From Candidatus Heimdallarchaeota archaeon (GTDB taxonomy: Archaea; Asgardarchaeota; Heimdallarchaeia; Heimdallarchaeales; Heimdallarchaeaceae): DNA of 64,000 bases. Positions 7,026 to 20,617 of this stretch are shown piece by piece (position 1 is the stretch's first letter; every line of letters starts with the position of its first letter). A program made the translations under genes and the position numbers. Where the stretch lies: assembly GCA_016840095.1 (NCBI GenBank), contig JAEOSZ010000095.1, forward strand, positions 46,060 to 110,059. The letters are read 5' to 3'. The notes below the pieces were generated by a model, which did no database searches, was not told the origin of the DNA, and saw only the letters and a program-made list of their open reading frames with translations.

Positions 7026-7442
7026 TCAACTTGAATACTTGGCACGTACTACTTCAAATACTTCCTTGCATTTTTCTTCAGTTAAGTTAGAAATTGCACA
7101 TTCCATATTCTCAGAAATTCTATTTATGAGTTCTTTTAGTTTAGTTTTGAGCTCTTCAACTGATAAACTTGAATATAGGTATTTGAAACCACCTCTTTCA
7201 AGATTTATTTTTGTTTTTCTGACAATCCCAATTCCAATTAATCTTTGAATTGATCTTGAAATTGTAGCTCTATCCTTCGGAATAATATCAGTTATTGTTT
7301 TGATATCAGCGGGTTGCATGTTTTTTATACACATCATGATTTCAATTTCATTTTCAGAGAGTGCATAAGCTGCTTTTATGATATCAAAGCAAGTGACATC
7401 TTTAGAATCAAAAGAAGAAAGAGGAAAGGACATTTTAATCAA
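7026..7442 (-). CDS. Winged-helix transcriptional regulator (TrmB/MarR-like)
   Basis: LSENEIEI...DRATISRSIQRLIGIGIVRK...GGFKYLY. Confidence 0.88.
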   Translation of the reverse strand: MIKMSFPLSSFDSKDVTCFDIIKAAYALSENEIEIMMCIKNMQPADIKTITDIIPKDRATISRSIQRLIGIGIVRKTKINLERGGFKYLYSSLSVEELKTKLKELINRISENMECAISNLTEEKCKEVFEVVRAKYSS

Positions 7443-7443
7443 C

Positions 7444-7812
7444 TCAGAAACAGTAGTTTAAGTCGGCCTCTAAAGACTCTGTAATAGCGTACATTCCACC
7501 AACTATGTCGTCGACTTCATCTATGAAATCTTCACGTGTTAATCCATATCTTTCCAGAGTAGGACTACAGACAAAAATCTTAACTCCAAATTCCTTTACT
7601 TCTTGAATCATCTCTAAGAATGATTTCTTACCTACACCAGGTGTAATTCTTTCTGCGTTTCCTTTTTTGAGAAGCAGACCACCCGACATGGTATAAACCA
7701 TCTGAACATCAGCATCTAGTGCAGCAGATAATGTTGCTAAATGAAGAGGGGTTTCTAACCTATCAGGATAGTCCTCTCCAAATGTTACCATTATCATGAT
7801 TTTGTGTGACAT
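7444..7812 (-). CDS. DsrE family sulfur-relay protein
   Basis: GVKIFVCSPT motif, 122 aa, operon context. Confidence 0.85.
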   Translation of the reverse strand: MSHKIMIMVTFGEDYPDRLETPLHLATLSAALDADVQMVYTMSGGLLLKKGNAERITPGVGKKSFLEMIQEVKEFGVKIFVCSPTLERYGLTREDFIDEVDDIVGGMYAITESLEADLNYCF

Positions 7813-7824
7813 GTTGAATCTCCC

Positions 7825-8298
7825 CTAGATATAGAGTGTGATTTCTGCTTTAGATGCGAATTCTAAGAAAGTTGCTGCACCACCAGGTGTACAATCTTCA
7901 ATAAGATCCTTATCTTTAATTTTCATAACTGCTTTTGTCATTTCACAAGCTATTAGTTGTACTCCAGATTCTATGGCTATATCCATTAGCTCTTGAAGAG
8001 TAGCTACATTTGCTTTCTTCATCCAACTCTTCATCATTTTGGTTGCCATACCTGTCATTCCAGGTAACATTCCAACGATTTGAGGGATTGGCATTGGCAT
8101 TGCAGTTTCTCCAGCAGGAGTGATTTTTATTTTCTTTAATTTCTTCTTCTTCAGTAGGTTCAAACCGAAGAAAGTGAAGAAGATTCCTACTTCATAATCC
8201 ATAGCTGCAGCTGTTGTAGCCAATAGTAATGGTGGATATGCTCCAGGTATATCAGCTTTTGAAGCTATTATAGCTAATCTTTTCTTTTTTTCAGACAT
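7825..8298 (-). CDS. DsrE/DsrF/DrsH-like (DsrE2) protein
   Basis: AYPPLLLATTAAAM, IFFTFFGL, LIACEMT, GAATFL. Confidence 0.9.
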   Translation of the reverse strand: MSEKKKRLAIIASKADIPGAYPPLLLATTAAAMDYEVGIFFTFFGLNLLKKKKLKKIKITPAGETAMPMPIPQIVGMLPGMTGMATKMMKSWMKKANVATLQELMDIAIESGVQLIACEMTKAVMKIKDKDLIEDCTPGGAATFLEFASKAEITLYI

Positions 8299-8311
8299 AT
8301 TTATTCCTCGT

Positions 8312-8560
8312 TTATTTTGTTTTTTTAATTACATAACGAAATATTCCGTTATCAACGGATTGATCCGCTAATTCGTGTCCAGTTGAATTGGTCCATGCTT
8401 TGAAATCTGCAACAGATCCTGGATCAGTAGCAACAACTTCTAGGTACTCCCCAACTGCTATTTCTCCAATTGCTTTCTTTGTTCTTAAAATTGGGAGAGG
8501 ACAACTTAGATTTTTTGCGTCAAGTGTTTTTGCGATTTTTATATCAGACATTTTTTTCAC
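8312..8560 (-). CDS. tusA: Sulfurtransferase TusA family protein
   Basis: LDAKNLSCPLPILRTKKA...ATDPGS. Confidence 0.93.
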   Translation of the reverse strand: MKKMSDIKIAKTLDAKNLSCPLPILRTKKAIGEIAVGEYLEVVATDPGSVADFKAWTNSTGHELADQSVDNGIFRYVIKKTK

Positions 8561-8561
8561 C

Positions 8562-9704
8562 TTACAAATAGCCCTTAATTAGAGCCTTGAAATAAACAAT
8601 TTTGAATGCTTTCTTGAATAATCCATATAGAAATAAGTTGTGTAAACCAAATTTTCTAGGAGCATAGTTATAACTAAATACCAATAACATTGATCTGCGG
8701 AATGAAGTGACTACAAAACAAACAGTAAAACCTCCGTATTTCTTAGTAGGTTCCTTTCCTTTCATTTCAAGTAGAATGTTTTTTATCAGCGCAGGAGCTG
8801 AAAAATGAGCAGCTGCTCCAGATTTTGAAATTGGCATATCAGTGCAATCACCTATTGCATACATACTTTTCTGATCTTTTACTTTTAGTGTAAACTTATC
8901 AGTACGAACAAATCCTTCGCGATCTCCTATACCTGCATCGAAAATTACTTTGTGCCCAACATGAGGTGGAATTAAGACTAATAAATCGTATTCTATCTCT
9001 TCTCCTTCTAGAGAAATAATTTTTTGATTTTCTTTATCAACTTCTTCATAGTTGAAGAATTCAACAAATTCTATCCCTCGTTTGTCAAAGAGTTTTTGAA
9101 CTTTTTCAGAGACTCTTGCTTCTGGATATGGTCGCATTAGTGGATAGAGATATTTAATTGTGGTCTTATCACGTAGTTTGATCTTCCTTAGGTAAGTGTC
9201 AAGTAAAAAGGTAAATTCAGCAGGTGCGGGAGGGCATTTGTATGGTACTGTTGATGGAGAAATTACAATAGTTCCACCTTTGAAGTTCTTAAGTGCATCT
9301 TGGAATTTCTTTGTAGCATCAGCTAGATAGAAATGATGAATTTTATCATCTTCATAAGAATCAACTTGCTCTTCATCCATTTTAGCTCCTGTTGCTAAGA
9401 CTAAGTAGTCATAAAGTAGGGTTTCTCCATTAGATAAGGCAATCTGTTTCTTTTCAGAATCAATATTTGTTGCAACTGTTCTCAGCCAAGTAGCTTTACC
9501 ACTAAGGACTTTGTTCATTGGTTTAGTAAACTTAGATTGAGGATATTTCTTAAAACCCCAAAAAACGTATTGAGGTTCATAAATGTTGAATTCGTTGGGT
9601 TCAATTAAGATTACTTTGGCATCTTTTCTACGTAGTTTCCTAGCTAATTTATTAGCTACTGTAATTCCTGCAAAACCTCCACCAACAATGACTATATTTT
9701 TCAT
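8562..9704 (-). CDS. sqr: Sulfide:quinone oxidoreductase-like flavoprotein (type III-like)
   Basis: GGGFAG Rossmann motif, YDYLVLATG, YKCPPAPAEF, YAIGD, SKSG, C-terminal TVCF cysteine. Confidence 0.82.
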   Translation of the reverse strand: MKNIVIVGGGFAGITVANKLARKLRRKDAKVILIEPNEFNIYEPQYVFWGFKKYPQSKFTKPMNKVLSGKATWLRTVATNIDSEKKQIALSNGETLLYDYLVLATGAKMDEEQVDSYEDDKIHHFYLADATKKFQDALKNFKGGTIVISPSTVPYKCPPAPAEFTFLLDTYLRKIKLRDKTTIKYLYPLMRPYPEARVSEKVQKLFDKRGIEFVEFFNYEEVDKENQKIISLEGEEIEYDLLVLIPPHVGHKVIFDAGIGDREGFVRTDKFTLKVKDQKSMYAIGDCTDMPISKSGAAAHFSAPALIKNILLEMKGKEPTKKYGGFTVCFVVTSFRRSMLLVFSYNYAPRKFGLHNLFLYGLFKKAFKIVYFKALIKGYL

Positions 9705-9715
9705 AATCTAATCCT

Positions 9716-9955
9716 CTAGTGTAATTTCTTGACAATGTATTTGTCGTGATCTTCTAAGTTGATGATTTCAACTAATTCATGCTTTGCTTTCTTTATCCAA
9801 GCAGGAACATCATTACGTGTTCCTTCATCAGAACTAAGAAGAGCTAATAATTCACCAACTTCAGCTTGACGAATCATTTTAATCAATTCCATCATTGGTC
9901 CAGGACAAAAACTTCCCCTGGCATCTATTTCTATAGCGATTTCATACTCTGTCAT
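9716..9955 (-). CDS. tusA: Sulfurtransferase TusA family protein
   Basis: IDARGSFCPGPMMEL...SSDEG. Confidence 0.92.
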   Translation of the reverse strand: MTEYEIAIEIDARGSFCPGPMMELIKMIRQAEVGELLALLSSDEGTRNDVPAWIKKAKHELVEIINLEDHDKYIVKKLH

Positions 9956-11809: not shown

Positions 11810-11892
11810 CATAAATTGGTGAAACTAGCAAGTTTTTTAAATCTGGTATCTAATATTATTATTATTAGTGGAAAGGATTAAGGGGTTCTAAC

Positions 11893-13035
11893 ATGCAAGC
11901 TCAATTATACATAACTCTGAAGTATGTTGTAGCTGTTGCATTATTCTGTGGTTTTATTGTGGCTATTTTCTTTGGTAGACGAAGACAAAATCCATTCTAT
12001 ATCCCTTGGTCAATTTTCTTGATTTCTTTTGGTTTATTTCAACTGATGGATGCTTTAACAAACCAATATGGAGTATTGCAAAGAATTGATGATATGCTGC
12101 CACCTGTTGGTAATGATACCATTCTTTTTCGATTGCTAAATGTTACGCACGCTTTAGCCATGATATTTCTATTTGCATCTTGTTTAGAGCAATCCATGAT
12201 TGTTCCTCCAAGAGCTAGTAGAATTATTGCTGCAAGTTTAACACTATTAGTTCTCTATTTTATTGTTATTCCACTAGAAGCGACACTTTTCAGTTTTGGA
12301 ACTCTTACCATTTCCATATATGGTAGATTGTTTACAGAGTTTTATGGTTTCATTTTTGGATTCATTGTTTTGTGTAGTGCTTTCCTACTGATTCCTGTAT
12401 TCATTCGTTATCTCAAACTATCACTTATTTCAAAGAATAACAGAATTAGATGGAAAACTATTATTACTTTTACTGTGTTCTTAATGTTACTTGGTTTAGC
12501 ATTTCTTATGACTGTGAGAAGAAAAGTAACAGAGAACGGTATGAATGAAAATACTTTTGCTATTTTTGAGATAGTTTACTCTTTCTTCATAGTATCAATA
12601 ATAGCGATTTATCAGAGTCAATCTGTTTCACATGGTATTGAAACAATAATAGTTGTTGATAGGGAAGGAAATCCTCTCCTTGGTTATTCTCCTTTTAGAA
12701 GAAGAAGGATTTCATTTGAGGAAAAGATTATTGCTGCTTCTGGGTATCTATCAGGGCTTTTTCACTTCATACATGACTATGTTGCTACGACAGACAAAGA
12801 AGAATTTAAGGAGCTAAAAACCACTTCCTCTACACTTTCTTTCTATGCTGGTGAAAAGATATTTATGATTGTTCAGTCGAAAATCTCAGGGGATCGATTA
12901 GATAAAACAACAAATACAGTTCTTTCAGAATTGGACAAATATCTTGTTGATTTTGAAGCTAATAGATTACCGTCTGAAGAACAGGTTGATGATATGATCA
13001 ACTTATTGGAAAAAAATTTCTACCTAATTGCTTGA
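11893..13035 (+). CDS. 7-TM membrane protein fused to a C-terminal longin-like domain
   Basis: Seven hydrophobic segments, then IIVVDREGNPLL...SGYLSGLFHFIHD...FKEL...LSFYAGEKIFMIV. Confidence 0.65.
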   Translation: MQAQLYITLKYVVAVALFCGFIVAIFFGRRRQNPFYIPWSIFLISFGLFQLMDALTNQYGVLQRIDDMLPPVGNDTILFRLLNVTHALAMIFLFASCLEQSMIVPPRASRIIAASLTLLVLYFIVIPLEATLFSFGTLTISIYGRLFTEFYGFIFGFIVLCSAFLLIPVFIRYLKLSLISKNNRIRWKTIITFTVFLMLLGLAFLMTVRRKVTENGMNENTFAIFEIVYSFFIVSIIAIYQSQSVSHGIETIIVVDREGNPLLGYSPFRRRRISFEEKIIAASGYLSGLFHFIHDYVATTDKEEFKELKTTSSTLSFYAGEKIFMIVQSKISGDRLDKTTNTVLSELDKYLVDFEANRLPSEEQVDDMINLLEKNFYLIA

Positions 13036-14397: not shown

Positions 14398-15387
14398 CTA
14401 CCAATTTATAAGTCCTATTGCTTTCAAAAGAACCCTTATTGCTGCAAAAGTTGCTAAAGACCAAAATCCTACTAGAATTATCTCTGACTTTATCCTATGT
14501 AGAAACCTTGGCACTATATTTGCCGTTATAACTGTACCTGCAGCCATTAATAAGACAATATCCCACTGAATAGAAGCTCCGGTAGGTACTCCTGAACCGA
14601 ATATGTCAAAAGATCTTATGAGAACTGCAAATGGTGTGGCAAACAATATTGTAAAAGTTGATGTTGCAGTTGCTACAGCTGCTGGAACACCCAAAGCCAT
14701 TGTTAGGATTGGAACATAGATAACGCCACCACCAAGTCCAAGAGTTGCACCAACAAATCCTCCAAGTATTGCAATGAAAATTCCAGGGATAAGTTTAGCC
14801 CTATACTTGAATTTAACACCTCTTTTATCTTCAAAATCTCTATAGAATGTTGTTCTTTTCCACCAAGGTCTAGCCATCTGCTCTTTATCACAATCTTCCT
14901 CTAAACACTCATCCGTTTCTGTTTCAAGACCTCTCCGTTTTTTTATCCAAGCAATGAAGATCGTAGTTAATTTGTATAATGCTATAGCAATCATCGTTGC
15001 ACCAAAGATAATCTGAAAGACATCTTTATTGACCTCTTGAACTTTTAACCATTGAGAAAATAATGCCCCAGATATTGCACCAGGAATTGCAAAAACCATA
15101 AATCTAACCGCTAAAGCATAATCGATTCTTTTCTCTCTTATATAAGAAATAGAACCACTCAAAGCAGTAAAAATAATAACACCAAGAGAGGTTGCAGTTG
15201 CTGTTGCACCAAGTAGTTCAGGATCTCCAACTTTATCTAATAGCAAACCACTGAAGGCAATAAGTAGGATTGGTACATTTAGTAAACCTCCACCAATTCC
15301 AAAAGTTGGTGATACAGCTCCACTAAGAAGTCCTGCCCCAAAGAGTGCTAAATAGGTCCACCATTGAAAGTGTTCAAACATTACCAT
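14398..15387 (-). CDS. Sulfite exporter TauE/SafE family
   Basis: Duplicated GIGGG/GLGGG...VP and ATATS motifs; multi-TM. Confidence 0.9.
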   Translation of the reverse strand: MVMFEHFQWWTYLALFGAGLLSGAVSPTFGIGGGLLNVPILLIAFSGLLLDKVGDPELLGATATATSLGVIIFTALSGSISYIREKRIDYALAVRFMVFAIPGAISGALFSQWLKVQEVNKDVFQIIFGATMIAIALYKLTTIFIAWIKKRRGLETETDECLEEDCDKEQMARPWWKRTTFYRDFEDKRGVKFKYRAKLIPGIFIAILGGFVGATLGLGGGVIYVPILTMALGVPAAVATATSTFTILFATPFAVLIRSFDIFGSGVPTGASIQWDIVLLMAAGTVITANIVPRFLHRIKSEIILVGFWSLATFAAIRVLLKAIGLINW

Positions 15388-15501: not shown

Positions 15502-16362
15502 ATGAGTTCAAACGTCGAATTCTCCTTAGCAGAACATTTTCTTTCACTTATCGATAAGAAAACTATCTGGGAATTGGATATGATTTGTTCAATTCTTAAT
15601 ATTAACGTGGAGGATTTCACTAATTTCATAAACAAGTTTCCTATGGCTTATGGATTATCCGTTCAAGGTAAAAAATTATACATAACACCTGAATTGGTAG
15701 GTGATGTTGTTGATGAAATAAAGAAGTCATTTATTGAATGGTATCAAAGAATCGCTCCTGATGGATATTCTCAAGTGGTTCAAGCAACTATTTCTAGAAG
15801 AACTGAAGAGATTAGAAGTGATACTCCAGAAAGAGTTTCACCTAAAATCAAAATTTCTGTTTATGGAAATAACTATATTGTAGAAGATGTACTAAATGAT
15901 TATCTTGCAAGAGCAGGATTAAGTCCTTCTTTTAACTATACTGGAGGGTATGAGCCAATTGATTTTCAAAAAAACATTGGGAATGAAATATACAACTGTC
16001 AATTCATGTTGATAAATTATAATAGAGATATGATTTCTTTAGCTAATCTTTTATTTGAGATGCCAGAAGCTTTCATCTTCATTTTTGATCCTCTTGACCC
16101 ATTGCAAAGTGATAGGTTAGTCAAGATGATAAAAATCTTGATTTCAAAAAGGAAAAACGATATGTTCATCACTTTTCTAGCTAATGTTAAATCCGAGATA
16201 TCTCAAGATTCCCTAGAGGATGTAGCTAACACTCTTTCTTATCTGGTAGAGTTTCTAGAAGAAAAACCTCAATTTAAGGTATCTTTTGCAATTCTTTCAT
16301 CAACTGATCAAGTTGAGAGAAAAATTAACGATTTAATCCAAACAGCTAGAATGCTATTTTGA
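15502..16362 (+). CDS. Winged-helix-like domain plus degenerate small-GTPase-like domain
   Basis: KIKISVYG...FIFIFDP...ITFLAN strand pattern of a small GTPase, with no GKS/T. Confidence 0.45.
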   Translation: MSSNVEFSLAEHFLSLIDKKTIWELDMICSILNINVEDFTNFINKFPMAYGLSVQGKKLYITPELVGDVVDEIKKSFIEWYQRIAPDGYSQVVQATISRRTEEIRSDTPERVSPKIKISVYGNNYIVEDVLNDYLARAGLSPSFNYTGGYEPIDFQKNIGNEIYNCQFMLINYNRDMISLANLLFEMPEAFIFIFDPLDPLQSDRLVKMIKILISKRKNDMFITFLANVKSEISQDSLEDVANTLSYLVEFLEEKPQFKVSFAILSSTDQVERKINDLIQTARMLF

Positions 16363-17094
16363 TCTTATTTCTGTAACTTGTTTGGATTTAGTTTTCTTCT
16401 TTGGTGATTGTTTTTTGTACATCTGTTCTTCTAGATAATCACCTAGTTCAGGAAAAGCTCTAAAAGCTAGGTATAACTGATATGTACCTATTGCAAGAGA
16501 AACAAAGAATAACCCAAATAAAACAAAACCTATTATGAGAAAAACTGTATAAATGGTTTCATTTGAAAGAATGCCTAATGCAAGAACACTTACTGTAAAA
16601 GAACTATAAGCAAGAGCTTGAATAAGATAAGCAATTGATAAAAATGGTAAAGGATTTCTCGGCATGAGTTTCTTTATATACAAAGTAACGAGATCTCTGT
16701 AAAAGAAGTAAAAGCCTATTGATATTGCTAGAAGAGAGAGAATCTGTAATATGGCAAAAATATAGAAGAAAGCTATAGTATACACGAATTCTCCAATTAT
16801 CAAACTGATTTGAGATAGGAGAAGTCCCACACTACCCCCAAAAATAAATCCTATTGTTTTTTTACTTCTCTCCCACTTTACAACAGGATCATAGGTCAGA
16901 TTAAAAACGCCCCAACAAAACCCTACTAAGCCAAGAATTATTGGAATTAAGGGAATTTGCTGAGCCTTCCATCCTATAAGCATAGTATCTTGAAAAAACT
17001 TTGAACTAGCTGCTACAAGTACATAGAAGAAGAAAACCAAAACTGAACTATTGATAATAAATTTGGAATGTTGTTTGCGGTTAATTATCCTCAC
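16354..17094 (-). CDS. Hypothetical membrane protein (about 6 TM)
   Basis: Hydrophobic helices; overlaps its neighbours. Confidence 0.75.
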   Translation of the reverse strand: MRIINRKQHSKFIINSSVLVFFFYVLVAASSKFFQDTMLIGWKAQQIPLIPIILGLVGFCWGVFNLTYDPVVKWERSKKTIGFIFGGSVGLLLSQISLIIGEFVYTIAFFYIFAILQILSLLAISIGFYFFYRDLVTLYIKKLMPRNPLPFLSIAYLIQALAYSSFTVSVLALGILSNETIYTVFLIIGFVLFGLFFVSLAIGTYQLYLAFRAFPELGDYLEEQMYKKQSPKKKTKSKQVTEIRSK

Positions 17095-17806
17095 CCTTTA
17101 TCTCATTTTCAAGGAGCTCAACATCTTCAATATAATTTGCATCATCTGAATCTAAGGAGTAATCTTCTATAGTATACTTTTCTGAATTGAACATATTCAA
17201 TGTTGATGATAAACCAAAGAAACCTAAAATTATAAGAAAAGCAGCAAATAAGAAAAGTATTAGTGAAACATTTTCAATCCAGGCATATAATACTAACGGA
17301 TAAATTAGCACACTATACCAGTTAATAATCGCTGGTGCTAGTAACACTATAATACCTGCTGGGATGTACCATTGTCCTTTTCTAGGTAAGTAACTATTGT
17401 TGAATAGAGAATTAATTGTATTCCTTAGAAAAATAAAGCCTACGGCTAAAACAATAAAGTATGTAACTATAAATGAGAGTCGAACATAAATGAATGGTTT
17501 CATGTTCCAGCTAGCTTTTAAGTTGATATACGCTAATATTAATGCTACAATATCGATAAGACTTGATGATATTAGAAAAATACTTGGAAGTTTCCATTTG
17601 ATGTTCTCACTTAATGATAGGCCCAATCTTATCAAGCCTATTGAAAAGAGTATAAGAGCAAAATCAAAAGCAGCATCAACTACTAATACAAGTTCTATTG
17701 CATATTTACCAAAAATGTAGCTTCCAGCAACCTTTAACATCTGAAGAATTGTTAATATCCACGCACTATAAACCAGATGTTTGGTAATATCGGATCTTTC
17801 GCTCAA
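17081..17806 (-). CDS. Hypothetical membrane protein (about 6 TM)
   Basis: Hydrophobic helices; PRKGQWYIPAG loop. Confidence 0.75.
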   Translation of the reverse strand: MSERSDITKHLVYSAWILTILQMLKVAGSYIFGKYAIELVLVVDAAFDFALILFSIGLIRLGLSLSENIKWKLPSIFLISSSLIDIVALILAYINLKASWNMKPFIYVRLSFIVTYFIVLAVGFIFLRNTINSLFNNSYLPRKGQWYIPAGIIVLLAPAIINWYSVLIYPLVLYAWIENVSLILFLFAAFLIILGFFGLSSTLNMFNSEKYTIEDYSLDSDDANYIEDVELLENEIKGEDN

Positions 17807-17810
17807 TTTT

Positions 17811-18827
17811 CTAACCCTTTTTCAGATATGGATTAGGTTCTCCACAGTCTCCACAGAAAGCTGAATCTTCATCAAGCTCTAAACCACATTTTACGCAAAA
17901 CATCTTCTTTGGAATTGATGGATCATCGATTAAGATGTCTTCTATTTTCTCCTCTGATTGAACAGCGGGTTTGACAGGTGGTGGTGGAGCTAACCCTCCA
18001 AACAATCCTCCCCTTCTTCCACCAAACATACCTCCTCCTTGTTGTCTAGCTTGTGCTTGCTGAGCTCTGGCTTCTTCTATTCTTTGGAATAGCTCTTCTG
18101 GGATTTTATCTAGAGTTGCAAAAGCTCTTCTTAGATACCAAAAACCTAAGACAATCATAACTAAATTCCCCATACTGAAGAAGTATTGAACCCAGAGAAG
18201 AACCTGAAATCCTTCTTCTACAAATAGCTCTGCATCCTCACCTTCACCAACGAAGTAGGCATAGGTTTCCTGAGGAATTATGGTTTCAATTGTTAGATAG
18301 ATGAATAATAATGCAAAACCTATGGGAAGTGATAGTTGTCCTTTATAGATATTCCTTCTGTCTGCTGCATATTTGTCTACTTCTCCTTTGAGAATATAGA
18401 ACGCTCCGGTGAAAACTGCAGCTGAAACAATAAAAGTGATATTTACAGGTAGTTGAACTTGAGCTACAGGATCACCTATACTAATGATACCAAATGATAT
18501 AACACCTGTTGCATAGAGAATACCTAAAAACCTAGATACTAACAAAATAATTGCGGCTACTCCAATGGTGATACTGGTTATGAAAATTGTTTTATTCTCT
18601 TCATCTTTGTGAAAAGAGTATAGTCCATAGGCTAACCATAATATCGCTAGGCTTTGAACAACACTAAGTCCGATGTCTACATACACAATTGCAGGTCCAG
18701 AAGCTAATAGGAATGTGAACATACTAACCATCATTGCTAAAACATAAACAAGAGATGAGTTTGTTATGTGTTTCCTGATTGAATTTTTAATCCCTGTTTC
18801 AGGCTTTAACTCTATTTCATCCATCAT
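17811..18827 (-). CDS. 6-TM membrane protein with C-terminal zinc ribbon
   Basis: TM region, Q/G/P low-complexity linker, then FCVKCG...FCGDCG. Confidence 0.8.
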   Translation of the reverse strand: MMDEIELKPETGIKNSIRKHITNSSLVYVLAMMVSMFTFLLASGPAIVYVDIGLSVVQSLAILWLAYGLYSFHKDEENKTIFITSITIGVAAIILLVSRFLGILYATGVISFGIISIGDPVAQVQLPVNITFIVSAAVFTGAFYILKGEVDKYAADRRNIYKGQLSLPIGFALLFIYLTIETIIPQETYAYFVGEGEDAELFVEEGFQVLLWVQYFFSMGNLVMIVLGFWYLRRAFATLDKIPEELFQRIEEARAQQAQARQQGGGMFGGRRGGLFGGLAPPPPVKPAVQSEEKIEDILIDDPSIPKKMFCVKCGLELDEDSAFCGDCGEPNPYLKKG

Positions 18828-19552: not shown

Positions 19553-20617
19553 TTGATGTTAATGTCTTCTCCTCTATTCGTACCATATATTGCATTATTA
19601 GTTCTTGACGAGAATGGAATGACACTTAGGAGTACAATTCCAATTCCTGATATTTCAAAAGAAGAGATTATAGGTATAGGAAACTTCTATAGCCCTGTTG
19701 TATCCGCTTCTTCACCCCATCTAGAGATATATGGTCCTTTACCAATTCCTCATTACGAGAAATACCATTTGCTAATTGTAACTTTTAGAAAGAAAGATTC
19801 TATGGTTCAAGATCCAAGAACAAAGGATCAGAATATTCAGTCCTTTTGCCAGCTACTTATTTTCTATCGAAAAGAATGCGATGAAAAAGTTAAATTTGGT
19901 CATTCACAAATATTTACAACGGTTGATATTTTTCTTCAAGAATTTCAGGATATAGCAGATGTTAGAGATGAAGAACTTCTCAAACTAAGTGAGATGCTAA
20001 TTGAAAATGTTATTCTTGATGACCAGATCAAATCCAAAAGCATTGAAGATATAGTTAGGGATATAGCTTCAAGATTTAATACTATACAACAAATATCTAA
20101 CCTCCTCAACCGAAGAACGAAAATAGGTATTATATCTTCAGATACTCTATCATATAATCTTATCATCCAATCTCTTTTCCATTTTCAGAATATTGATTTT
20201 ATCTACCAACTGGATAGAAACGAATTCATAACTCGAATAGATACATACTTCATGAGGATAGTCTTAACTCTCCTTTTTGATCTAGAGATGATCGAAGGAA
20301 TAGACTACTTCAGAGAAATTGATTATTATGTATATCTGGCTTCTTGTGAAGAAGAGGGAAGTTGCCAAAAACATATAGACAATATCGATAGTCTGTTTAA
20401 ACTAGACAAAAATGCAAAAATCTTCTTCGTTACAACTGAGAGAGCTGAGCAATTATCTTTAGAAAAAAAGAAATTCCTATTTCAAGAAACAGAAGACAGA
20501 AAGAATCTCAAACTAATGATTTCAGTAGGAGATGTTTTTAGAACTCTAGATAATGCTATTTATCTAATATTGAATGATATATTAGAGTTAAGAAAAATTA
20601 TTCTCAGTCAAAATTAA
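19553..20617 (+). CDS. Longin/uDENN-like N-terminus plus degenerate GTPase-like C-terminus
   Basis: IALLVLDENG...YGPLPIP...QDPR; C-terminal TKIGIIS...IDYYVYLAS...IFFVTT. Confidence 0.4.
   Translation: MMLMSSPLFVPYIALLVLDENGMTLRSTIPIPDISKEEIIGIGNFYSPVVSASSPHLEIYGPLPIPHYEKYHLLIVTFRKKDSMVQDPRTKDQNIQSFCQLLIFYRKECDEKVKFGHSQIFTTVDIFLQEFQDIADVRDEELLKLSEMLIENVILDDQIKSKSIEDIVRDIASRFNTIQQISNLLNRRTKIGIISSDTLSYNLIIQSLFHFQNIDFIYQLDRNEFITRIDTYFMRIVLTLLFDLEMIEGIDYFREIDYYVYLASCEEEGSCQKHIDNIDSLFKLDKNAKIFFVTTERAEQLSLEKKKFLFQETEDRKNLKLMISVGDVFRTLDNAIYLILNDILELRKIILSQN

Follow-up and report, generated by a model that had tools for sequence, protein, structure and literature searches.

A seven-transmembrane protein with a cytoplasmic longin domain in a Heimdall-group archaeon, a possible membrane platform for a small-GTPase module

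In a 64,000-nucleotide stretch of DNA from a Heimdall-group (Asgard) archaeon, hereafter called the window, we observed an intact gene whose 380-residue product joins seven transmembrane (TM) helices to a cytoplasmic C-terminal domain. On the structural models, this domain is a longin and not a PAS or GAF domain. We consider it possible, with a probability of about 0.45, that the longin acts as a membrane-fixed docking or regulatory platform for a small-GTPase module, controlled by the 7TM part. Eukaryotes use the longin fold to dock and switch small GTPases, and Asgard archaea contain dozens of eukaryote-like small GTPases together with equally many longin or roadblock domains. To our knowledge, few Asgard GTPases have an assigned regulator, and we know of no prenylation machinery or obvious organelles in Asgard cells. 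The 7TM-longin protein is thus a testable candidate for a link between the membrane and a GTPase switch in Heimdall archaea.

Table 1. Position of the 7TM-longin gene and of its features in the window.
Feature	Residues	Position	Strand	Remarks
Promoter-like box CAAGTTTTTTAAA (archaeal BRE/TATA-like)		11829..11841	+	about 52-64 nt upstream of start codon
Shine-Dalgarno-like AAGGGGT		11880..11886	+	7-13 nt upstream of ATG
7TM-longin gene		11893..13035	+	complete, 380 codons and TGA stop
Seven-TM bundle	2-243	11896..12621	+	AF2, VIA-align, Foldseek, positive-inside count
TM1	2-30	11896-11982	+	AF2 secondary structure
Cytoplasmic loop 1 (ICL1), GRRRQNPFY	28-36	11974..12000	+	entropy 0.62
TM2	36-58	11998-12066	+	AF2 secondary structure
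TM3	75-101	12115-12195	+	AF2 secondary structure
TM3 end and cytoplasmic loop 2 (ICL2), EQSMIVPPRASR	99-110	12187..12222	+	entropy 0.97
TM4	106-125	12208-12267	+	AF2 secondary structure
Outer helix and beta-hairpin	129-149	12277-12339	+	AF2 secondary structure
TM5	150-180	12340-12432	+	AF2 secondary structure
TM6	183-208	12439-12516	+	AF2 secondary structure
TM7	219-243	12547-12621	+	AF2 secondary structure
Linker S-V-S-H-G, TM7 to first longin strand	five residues	12622..12636	+	entropy 0.46
Longin domain	249-376	12637..13020	+	domain-only AF2, VIA-align, Foldseek
Longin alpha1	275-297	12715-12783	+	between beta1-beta2 hairpin and beta3-beta5

Two short elements stand out upstream of the gene. 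When the upstream regions of six orthologues, down to 65% protein identity, are aligned, the A-CAA-TTTTT-AAA columns of the promoter-like box are invariant while the intergenic DNA flanking it has diverged, and the GGGGT of the Shine-Dalgarno-like element is invariant as well. We regard the box as a candidate promoter of the 7TM-longin gene and AAGGGGT as a putative ribosome-binding site.

The full-length AF2 model (alignment of 42 homologues; mean pLDDT 84.2, pTM 0.82) shows seven long helices (Table 1) followed by a C-terminal domain of 137 residues, in agreement with the initial annotation, which had recognised seven hydrophobic helices and a soluble domain. TM5 is kinked at residue 165, and the gap between TM4 and TM5 contains a short helix and a beta-hairpin. 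A Kyte-Doolittle scan picked up every segment except TM2, which was slightly below threshold. In the family mean, the loops predicted to face inwards have 9.6 Lys plus Arg and those facing outwards 4.6 (about 2:1), which indicates an N-out/C-in topology with the longin domain in the cytoplasm; the concern that this domain might lie outside the cell was not borne out.

The comparison of the bundle with chains of GPCR fold by VIA-align gave Z values of 14-16.3 (210-232 residues, rmsd 3.6-4.0), only marginally higher than the stated helical-bundle background of about 13-14. Whole-model Foldseek returned mostly weak GPCR rows (best E 8.8e-4, others about 1e-3, rmsd 6-11 Å) and was uninformative for the longin, for which a domain-only model was needed. 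The protein shares with GPCRs the seven TM helices, the N-out/C-in topology and, with a score marginal over helical background, the helix arrangement. The GPCR motifs DRY, CWxP and NPxxY are absent, since TM3 terminates in LEQS, TM6 lacks Pro and no NPxxY is present in TM7, and no 7tm Pfam family was matched at E<=10 by the family members scanned. A microbial rhodopsin was rejected because TM7 has no retinal-binding lysine, and a PAQR or alkaline ceramidase because the conserved His/Asp/Ser zinc site is missing (no His is conserved in residues 1-243, and H86 is variable). HisKA_7TM is the automatic name of an Atlas feature-neighbour cluster of a stored homologue; PF16927 (HisKA_7TM) found no match in 17 family members at E<=10, nor genome-wide at E<=1. 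HisKA_7TM, tetraspanin, amastin and the other sporadic Pfam TM matches were single-member, sub-threshold and non-recurrent, and were discarded as matches, a distant relationship to HisKA_7TM being conceivable. The sequence profile of the full protein against the PDB gave noise only (E of at least 0.25).

In the C-terminal domain, AF2 predicts strands at residues 249-256 and 261-266, a helix at 275-297, strands at 307-309, 314-319 and 323-329, and helices at 334-350 and 362-376. This beta-beta-alpha-beta-beta-beta-alpha-alpha succession is exactly the longin order and appears in both the full-length and the domain-only model (pLDDT 75.7 for the latter); the pattern first read from the sequence was therefore right except for one extra terminal helix. 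Helix alpha1 has a pLDDT below 50-60 in both models. Strand beta1 begins five residues past TM7, and no helix is packed ahead of it.

When the domain-only model was compared by VIA-align, the best 34 rows were all longin-type (Z 8.3-11.3), nearly all of them extending from residues 1-5 to residues 132-137 of the domain. The leading longins (Bet5/synbindin, Fuzzy, VAMP7, Mon1-Ccz1 and Lokiarchaeota) reached Z 10-11.3 over 113-128 residues. Individual values were 11.3 for Bet5 (3cue_C, 125 aa, 3.1 Å), 11.1 for synbindin (2zmv) and Fuzzy (7q3d_C), 11.0 for VAMP7 (4afi_B), 10.6 for AP mu, 10.3 for Ccz1/Mon1 (5ldd_E) and 10.1 for a Lokiarchaeota longin (8yqg_B); since Z differences under 1 are ties, these structural scores cannot separate longin subfamilies. 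Foldseek with the same model gave 19 matches at E<=1e-3, all longin-type among the matches listed, and no PAS or GAF chain was present among the matches listed by either program, so that the longin assignment made in the initial annotation held against these folds. A roadblock/LC7 domain (MglB, LAMTOR, dynein LC7) was also rejected: such rows scored Z 6.8-8.3 and aligned only from residue 1 to about 110, and here there is no soluble helix before beta1 and there are two C-terminal helices.

At the sequence level, the target had no Pfam match at E<=1, and the longin families PF13774, PF04099, PF19031 and PF19036 were not reached. Relatives and paralogues scored 13-26 bits with longin Pfam families, as compared to curated cut-offs of 23.7-26.1, and none reached the gathering cut-off. 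PF19031 (Intu/CCZ1/HPS4) was matched by three of 19 family C-terminal domains (best E 3.5e-6) and PF04099 (sybindin) by one of the 19 (E 2.2e-5; 2.2e-5 to 7e-3 in some family members), while PF19036 (Fuz/MON1/HPS1) was matched by a TPR-longin paralogue (E 1.5e-5) and a longin-8TM paralogue (8e-4). Trs23 and TRAPPC1 were faint PDB profile matches of the domain (E 0.4-0.8). The only recurring sequence affinities of the domain and its paralogues are thus with the Rab-GEF-type longins PF19031, PF19036 and PF04099.

Homologues of equal length and architecture form 44 protein clusters with 38-84% identity. The gene is single-copy in 23 of the 24 other genomes of the genus and in nearly all sampled genomes of one Heimdall family, and divergent full-length relatives occur in three further families of the class. 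The conserved length, architecture and single copy indicate that this architecture is not due to chance. A profile search of a set of 5.8 billion proteins added no members beyond the Heimdall set among the capped number of candidates passed by its word filter.

Conservation is highest in ICL1 and ICL2, in the linker and on the longin hairpin/alpha1 face, and the outer loops are variable. ICL1 is the best conserved portion of the TM half, and its G28 is invariant even in distant relatives. Near its cytoplasmic end, TM3 has a Q100 that is invariant among 42 family members, flanked by E99 and S101, which hardly vary; Glu or Gln is kept at this position in 16 of 17 aligned wider sequences. In the linker, S244, H247 and G248 are invariant, and its five residues are probably too few for a freely tethered domain. 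The mean column entropy is 1.87, 1.68 and 1.86 bits in ECL1, ECL2 and ECL3, respectively; within the longin it is 0.48 in the hairpin and 0.49 in alpha1, as compared to 1.44-1.58 bits in alpha2/alpha3. Invariant or near-invariant polar residues also lie in the helices or at their ends (R80, E99, Q100, Y122, T148, Y151, R172 and R210).

The same type of domain is used repeatedly in this genome. Iterated HMM searches found 41 longin/roadblock-like domains in 40 ORFs. The genome also has about 40 Ras-superfamily genes. Two more multi-TM-longin proteins and one longin-8TM protein are encoded, as are TPR-longins and five TM-anchored receptor-like proteins of 488-1669 residues (four of at least 1081) with the longin just inside the last TM helix. 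Three Arf-family GTPases bear a longin/roadblock-like tail, and the profile of the 7TM-longin family matches the tails of two of the three (E 1.3e-6 and 3.3e-6). Longin expansion and domain shuffling are a known Asgard trait, with 130 Roadblock/longin asCOGs (Liu et al. 2021), and a fusion with a roadblock or longin domain is reported for 26 of the 74 small GTPases of Lokiarchaeon MK-D1 (Tran et al. 2024, PMC10933270).

Starting from the established architecture, fold, charge-bias topology, conservation pattern and reuse of the longin type behind membrane-spanning proteins, we infer a partner in a GTPase module, sensing by the 7TM part and a direction of signalling. The protein would sit in the membrane with its N-terminus outside and its helices arranged as in GPCR-type receptors, and the invariant linker would hold the longin directly below the cytoplasmic face of the bundle. 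The beta1-beta2/alpha1 face may then bind a small GTPase itself, or else a longin/roadblock domain in a partner that bears a GTPase; candidates in this genome are the pseudo-GTPase orf286 near the gene and the Arf-like GTPases that end in a longin/roadblock tail. Through ICL1 and ICL2, the bundle could set the conformation or accessibility of this face in response to a ligand, a lipid or the state of the membrane. In line with such pairing, the Bet5/Trs23 longin pair binds Rab1 in an MglA/MglB-like geometry (Tran et al. 2024, PMC10933270). Three observations support this platform reading, which is a weaker version of the receptor-GEF proposed in the initial annotation: conservation is highest on the cytoplasmic side and on the alpha1 face of the longin, several receptor-like membrane proteins of this genome carry related longins on the inside, and the C-terminal domains of two Arf-family GTPases are picked up by the family profile at E of about 1e-6. 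On the other hand, many longins, such as those of SNAREs and of adaptin sigma/mu, do not regulate GTPases.

The gene lies between those of a surface M14 carboxypeptidase and a UDP-GlcNAc 2-epimerase, all three co-directional in the order M14 peptidase, 7TM-longin, epimerase, with gaps of 83 and 44 nt. This order is kept in two genera (g1 and g10) and lost in two others (g12 and g13) and in distant relatives; an obligatory operon was rejected in view of this loss and of the gene's own conserved promoter-like box. No canonical GTPase gene is adjacent to the target, the nearest Ras-family match being about 11 kb away, and no annotated GTPase was found at two loci of distant homologues (L025 and L026), in a scan that covered L026 except for a 173-aa ORF. 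In favour of the platform reading, a plausible pseudo-GTPase, orf286 (hhalign 76.6%, E 2e-5), keeps to a distance of no more than about 2.5-5 kb from the target in three of the four genera compared at this locus. The synteny with orf286, TauE and a trio of TM proteins could reflect simple relatedness within one family. The trio, tm246, tm241 and tm338 (16354-18827), was rejected as 7TM paralogues of the target (hhalign probability at most 1.2%); the three are paralogues of one another (95-97%). The gene at 19553-20617 was likewise rejected, both as a longin relative through its N-terminus (hhalign 2.7%) and as GTPase-like through its C-terminal half (1.1%).

The initial annotation had gone further than the platform reading and proposed a possible single-chain receptor-GEF. 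In this reading, a ligand on the 7TM part would activate the longin and lead to direct nucleotide exchange on a Rab/Arf/Rag-like GTPase, in function like a GPCR. This is partly supported, in that the 7TM part with a cytoplasmic longin is there, whereas direct GEF activity finds no canonical GTPase in the adjacent genes, and we judge the complete proposal quite unlikely. The best structural and the sole recurring sequence affinities are with TRAPP Bet5/Trs23/synbindin, Mon1-Ccz1 and Fuzzy-Inturned (PF19031, PF19036 and PF04099), a rigid invariant linker and conserved cytoplasmic loops suit allosteric coupling, and the genome has about 40 Ras-superfamily genes. However, no GTPase gene is linked to the target, and VAMP7 and AP mu, which are not GEFs, tie structurally with the GEF longins, so that the GEF subtype is not separable. 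Known longin GEFs, moreover, act as heterodimers, for which this genome has candidate partner longins, and depend on additional elements, in TRAPP for example the C-terminus of Bet3; we know of no universal catalytic motif among longin GEFs. GEF activity of the 7TM-longin is thus possible but unsupported, and that a ligand- or lipid-gated 7TM part drives a fused TRAPP/Mon1-type longin and so activates an Arf/Rab/Rag-like GTPase, as a receptor-exchange factor in one chain, is in our opinion highly doubtful. A longin GAP tail of the Folliculin/NPRL2/SMCR8 type is extremely improbable: the longins of FLCN-FNIP2 and Lst4 were matched at Z 7.5-8.1, but this is 2-3 Z units below TRAPP, Fuzzy, VAMP7 and Mon1-Ccz1, and the Pfam hints are to the sybindin and tri-longin GEF families, not to folliculin. 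Furthermore, no Arg is invariant in residues 244-380 among 42 family members or 17 wider members; K278, the sole invariant basic residue of the longin domain in the close family, is lost in distant relatives, and a basic cluster at 269-272 is present but variable.

LAMTOR1 anchors Ragulator at the membrane, and in the same way the 7TM part might only fix the longin, sensing nothing, while the longin nucleates a longin/roadblock assembly. Consistent with this, the same longin type is found both next to single TM anchors and in soluble TPR scaffolds, as if the membrane part were interchangeable, and the outer loops are weakly conserved and have indels. But one helix would suffice for an anchor, and all seven persist from family to family, together with polar residues that are invariant or nearly so and the predicted outer beta-hairpin; we consider a purely passive role unlikely. 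The longin could also act independently of GTPases, if the 7TM part were a transporter, channel or enzyme that the longin helps to oligomerise or regulates through a small ligand. A relationship between longin and GAF domains was reportedly proposed by De Franceschi and colleagues in 2014, ACER3, a 7TM hydrolase, reached Z 13.8, which is within the tied helical background, and the conserved order of the neighbours in g1 and g10 makes a link to cell-surface biogenesis possible. The longin/roadblock core fold is also shared with profilin (Tran et al. 2024, PMC10933270). Against this stand the loss of the neighbours elsewhere and the separate promoter-like box, the absence of any Pfam transporter or enzyme family match of the target at E<=1, of a PAQR/ACER-like His/Asp metal site and of a rhodopsin-like TM7 lysine, and the lack of PAS or GAF chains among the matches listed, so that a GTPase-independent role seems distinctly improbable to us.

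The protein is defined and expressible, and its longin can be screened against the GTPases and the longin/roadblock domains (about 40 of each) of the same genome. A partner, if found, would provide the first map of how membrane and GTPases are wired together in a Heimdall archaeon and would tell whether the logic from sensor to longin platform to GTPase, as in Ragulator/SLC38A9, TRAPP and Mon1-Ccz1, predates eukaryotes. If there is no GTPase partner, the protein would still show that archaeal membrane receptors use the longin fold as an adaptor of general purpose in the cytoplasm. Should the receptor-exchange factor prove true, signalling from 7TM receptors to GTPases would have a prokaryotic counterpart, wired in cis, among the nearest kin of eukaryotes, and an Asgard small GTPase would for the first time have a native regulator assigned to it.

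Among known systems, the TRAPP longins Bet5/TRAPPC1 and Trs23/TRAPPC4 (3cue, 2j3t, 7b6d and 2zmv) are the leading matches of the domain (Z 11.3 over 125 residues and 11.1 over 115 residues; Foldseek TM 0.65-0.68) and share its beta-beta-alpha-beta3-alpha-alpha order. They are soluble subunits that form heterodimers and work with Bet3 in a multi-protein Rab GEF, whereas here one longin is fused to a 7TM bundle and no TRAPPC3/Bet3 partner is linked to its gene. The tri-longin GEFs Mon1-Ccz1, Fuzzy-Inturned/CPLANE and HPS1-HPS4/BLOC-3 also match well (Fuzzy Z 11.1, 5ldd_E 10.3, 9lol_A and 9rs6_B 9.9, BLOC-3 8zwc_B 9.1), but they are soluble heterodimers with three longins in each protein, and the target has a single longin and lacks the other two. 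The Asgard longin/roadblock proteins, including the Lokiarchaeota Roadblock-Longin 8yqg, share phylum and fold with the target longin. The architectures described comprise stand-alone longin, longin-GTPase, GTPase-roadblock, longin-TRAPPC3 and longin with two-component domains (PMC10933270; Liu et al. 2021); Tran et al. 2024 (PMC10933270) nowhere use the word 'transmembrane', and we found no published description of a 7TM-longin fusion in the literature.

Within the same genome, the single-pass receptor-like paralogues C25, C122 and C163 have, as the target, a membrane part followed by a cytoplasmic longin. They combine one TM helix with a very large ectodomain, whereas the target has a compact 7TM bundle and almost no ectodomain; its longin is TRAPP/tri-longin-like, and the TM parts of the two kinds of protein are unrelated. 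With the GPCR fold (classes A/B/C/F/T and the de novo proteins 8oyx and 8oyy), the target has in common the seven helices, their arrangement, the N-out/C-in topology and, with GPCRs, a beta-hairpin in the TM4-TM5 outer loop. The acidic or amide residue conserved where TM3 meets the cytoplasm occupies the E/DRY position, which is a positional resemblance only. There is no sequence similarity to GPCRs and no heterotrimeric G protein, and the output domain is fused in cis instead of being recruited. Eukaryotic lysosomal nutrient sensors of the polytopic kind, namely SLC38A9 with Ragulator-Rag and GPR155/LYCHOS with GATOR1, control longin/roadblock-GTPase modules in trans, as separate chains. The target's likeness to them is one of logic, and it carries its sensor-like part and its longin in one chain.

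The 7TM-longin gene encodes a compact seven-TM membrane protein that carries a rigidly attached cytoplasmic longin domain and has a conserved inner face. It lies on contig C95 of the source genome (C95:46060-110059; assembly of 3.44 Mb, 89% complete), in a window with a G+C content of 31-37%, and a Pfam scan of its product gave no match at E<=1. The AF2 model, based on a full-length alignment of 42 homologues (mean pLDDT 84.2, pTM 0.82), shows seven long helices (residues 2-30, 36-58, 75-101, 106-125, 150-180, which is kinked, 183-208 and 219-243), with a short helix and a β-hairpin in the TM4-TM5 loop (residues 129-149). A five-residue linker then leads into a C-terminal domain of order E-E-H-E-E-E-H-H. 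The initial annotation had counted seven helices, and the hydropathy scan agrees with the model on six of them, TM2 being slightly less hydrophobic.

The C-terminal domain (residues 244-380) was aligned with 18 orthologous and distant counterparts from genome loci and folded alone (pLDDT 75.7). When this model was compared by VIA-align with 48,161 PDB representatives, 34 longin-type chains ranked first, among them Bet5 (3cue_C; Z 11.3, 125 aa, 3.1 Å), synbindin (2zmv_A) and Fuzzy (7q3d_C; both Z 11.1), VAMP7 (4afi_B; 11.0), AP-4 mu (10.6), TRAPPC1 (7b6d_C; 10.4), Mon1-Ccz1 (5ldd_E; 10.3) and the longin chain of a Lokiarchaeota Roadblock-Longin (8yqg_B; 10.1), with SRX, Sec22, sedlin and Ykt6 below the latter. 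Roadblock/LC7 chains came after the longins (Z 6.8-8.3) and covered residues 1 to about 110, so that they miss the last helix. Foldseek gave 19 matches at E<=1e-3, and among the matches listed all were longin-type. The longin proposed in the initial annotation is thus confirmed; a PAS or GAF fold, which would have spoken against it, was not found among the matches listed by either method. The only Pfam families that recurred among the 19 C-domains are longins of GTPase regulators, all scoring below the curated cut-offs: PF19031 (INTU/CCZ1/HPS4 longin 1) in 3 of the 19 (best E 3.5e-6) and PF04099 (sybindin; E 2.2e-5), which recurs in a second family scan. The target's own C-domain had no Pfam match, and a PDB sequence-profile search returned faint matches to Trs23 and TRAPPC1 (E 0.4-0.8).

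The full model aligned by VIA-align to GPCR-fold chains (de novo 8oyx and 8oyy, GPR6, TAS2R, FZD1 and CB1) with Z 14-16.3 over 210-232 residues (rmsd 3.6-4.0 Å), and because unrelated helical bundles also reach Z of about 13-14, we read the predicted TM half as a GPCR-like helix arrangement rather than as GPCR membership. Foldseek of the same model found GPCRs at E of about 1e-3. TM7 contains no lysine, so the protein is not a rhodopsin, and the conserved histidine site of PAQR/ACER hydrolases is missing, which rules out that identity as well. PF16927 (HisKA_7TM), a name taken from an automatic ESM Atlas cluster, had no match in the family or the genome.

The loops predicted inside carry family means of 2.8, 2.2 and 4.6 K+R residues (total 9.6), as compared to 4.6 outside (0 for the N-terminus; 0.3, 1.3 and 3.0 for the loops). 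Therefore, the N-terminus is placed outside and the soluble domain in the cytoplasm, where the initial annotation needed it to be; ECL3, with RRK after TM6, is the sole loop contrary to the positive-inside rule. In the 42-homologue alignment, mean column entropy is low in ICL1 (GRRRQNPFY, 0.62), the segment from the end of TM3 through ICL2 (LEQS..RASR, 0.97), the TM7-longin linker (0.46), the β1-β2 hairpin (0.48) and helix α1 of the longin (0.49); it is 1.44-1.58 in longin α2/α3 and 1.68-1.87 in the outer loops, which also contain indels. The conserved surface therefore consists of the cytoplasmic face of the bundle and the single-helix face of the longin. Given an MglA/MglB-like geometry, the latter is presumably where longin/roadblock dimers pair and seat GTPases. 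Such a geometry is described for Bet5/Trs23-Rab1 (Tran et al., PMC10933270). Helix α1 has low confidence in both AF2 models, full-length and domain-only, as would fit a mobile or partner-dependent element.

Iterated HMM searches from the C-domain alignment, run to convergence over 5,984 six-frame ORFs of the source genome, found 41 longin/roadblock-like domains in 40 ORFs (Table). Several membrane proteins of this lineage, the target among them, have a longin at their C-terminal end. The TM parts of three other multi-TM longin proteins have no detectable similarity to the target's 7TM, and therefore represent independent fusions or very old divergences. Five TM-anchored receptor-like proteins (488-1669 aa, four of at least 1081 aa) place a TM helix about 10-50 residues ahead of a cytoplasmic longin. 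In addition, the four longest combine an N-terminal signal/anchor with an extensive region free of TM segments, and a Pfam scan of two of the five gave no annotation. Several TPR-longin proteins are also present. Three in tandem share the target's longin subtype, and one of these matches PF19036 (FUZ/MON1/HPS1 longin 1) at E 1.5e-5 (25.6 vs. a cut-off of 26.1 bits). Finally, a family profile including distant members matches the tails of the Arf-family GTPases on C62 and C90 (E 1.3e-6 and 3.3e-6), that on C23 only after iteration. These GTPases are candidates for pairing with longins anchored in the membrane.

Features of the window and related genes in the source genome (C, contig; L, locus) and in genome G255
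Feature	Location	Strand	Description
Sulfur-relay-like block	7026-9955	-	TusA-like, pyridine-nucleotide disulfide reductase/SQR-like (380 aa), TusA-like, DsrE-like
Promoter-like box	11829-11841		CAAGTTTTTTAAA; target's own box, conserved upstream
SD-like motif	11880-11886		AAGGGGT; conserved upstream of target
Target	11893..13035	+	380 codons, uninterrupted (reading-frame analysis)
TauE	14398-15387		sulfite exporter
orf286	15502-16362	+	N-terminal winged-helix-like part, GTPase-like C-half
Three adjacent multi-TM genes	16354-18827	-	246/241/338 aa; last with terminal zinc ribbon
354-aa protein	19553-20617	+	no Pfam match
Multi-TM, longin at target's position	C11:9312-10451 (L040)		7 TM segments
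Multi-TM, longin at target's position	C119:13257-14354 (L041)		7-8 TM segments
Longin, then about 8 TM (reverse order)	C29:12669-13991 (L043)		PF19036, E 8e-4
Five receptor-like longin proteins	C25:36441-45279; C122:129640-134649; C163:143482-146727		three in tandem on C25
Three tandem TPR-longin genes	C148:2696-8946 (L027)		676-709 aa, longin C-terminal
Three Arf-family GTPases	C62:5772-6725; C90:3110-4063; C23:337-1257 (L035-L037)		PF00025, E ~1e-36; longin/roadblock-like C-terminus
Match outside class Heimdallarchaeia	G255:C40:17478-18290		279-aa open frame

Within the genus, 23 of the 24 other genomes have the gene as a single copy, and profile searches found it in 29/30 and 28/28 other genomes of the family (two samplings). 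Counting matches that span the TM part and the longin, the profile with distant members extended its range to three additional families of the class (5/11, 2/3 and 2/2 genomes; E 1e-109 to 1e-29). The sole match outside the class is near-full-length (E 9e-46) and occurs in 1 of 68 genomes of a family in another class of the phylum; it could be a gene transfer or a mis-binned contig. Two distant genes that were read (L025, 354 aa; L026, 368 aa) have the target's architecture. Named homologues are nearly all from Candidatus Heimdallarchaeota/Heimdallarchaeaceae MAGs, and substantial DNA matches occur only in marine-sediment metagenomes. An exhaustive phmmer search of 1.84 billion representatives gave only 11 matches. 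The homologue P0043, queried in the ESM Atlas, retrieved Asgard-only clusters (351-366 aa; about 320 residues aligned structurally, TM 0.57-0.72), one of them mostly Thorarchaeota, a lead that the architecture may be wider than sequence searches show.

Throughout the genus, and in genus g10 of the same family, the order is tusA-reductase-tusA / M14 carboxypeptidase -> target -> UDP-GlcNAc 2-epimerase / TauE <- / orf286 -> / three TM genes <-. Genera g12 and g13 lack the peptidase and epimerase but keep TauE and the TM genes within about 5 kb, and g13 keeps orf286 at this distance too. The L025 and L026 loci contain none of these neighbours and no annotated GTPase; therefore, context gives no firm partner. 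The most interesting neighbour is orf286, whose C-half matches the alignment of the genome's Ras family in register (hhalign 76.6%, E 2e-5, 117 columns) and has degenerate P-loop, DxxG and NKxD motifs, so that from its sequence it is plausibly a pseudo-GTPase. It is confined to the same family (28/30 genomes), is present in g13 only as the GTPase-like half (about 190 aa), and its co-occurrence with the target could be explained by kinship alone. The three multi-TM genes, mutual paralogues (hhalign 95-97%) that accompany the neighbourhood in four genera, are unrelated to the target's 7TM domain. A reading of the 354-aa protein as longin/uDENN plus pseudo-GTPase is not supported in either part (profile comparison 2.7% to the target longin, 1.1% to the Ras family). 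Separately, the sulfur-relay-like block upstream of the M14 peptidase is syntenic genus-wide.

The most economical mechanism, which we hold tentatively (probability roughly 0.45), is a longin platform embedded in the membrane, where the longin would pair with a GTPase or a GTPase-borne longin/roadblock domain and the 7TM bundle would act as sensor or allosteric input. That the bundle is a passive membrane anchor appears unlikely. A true receptor-GEF in one chain is an unsupported reading of rather low probability, and a regulatory domain independent of GTPases is just as doubtful. A folliculin-type GAP is very improbable: the conserved arginine is missing and Z is lower.

With respect to known systems, the 7TM differs from GPCRs in missing the signature motifs DRY, CWxP and NPxxY. 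No description of a 7TM-longin fusion was found in the literature searched. That Asgard archaea have expanded and shuffled their longin domains is already known (PMC10933270), and archaea have GPCR-like 7TM folds (PMC13581589).
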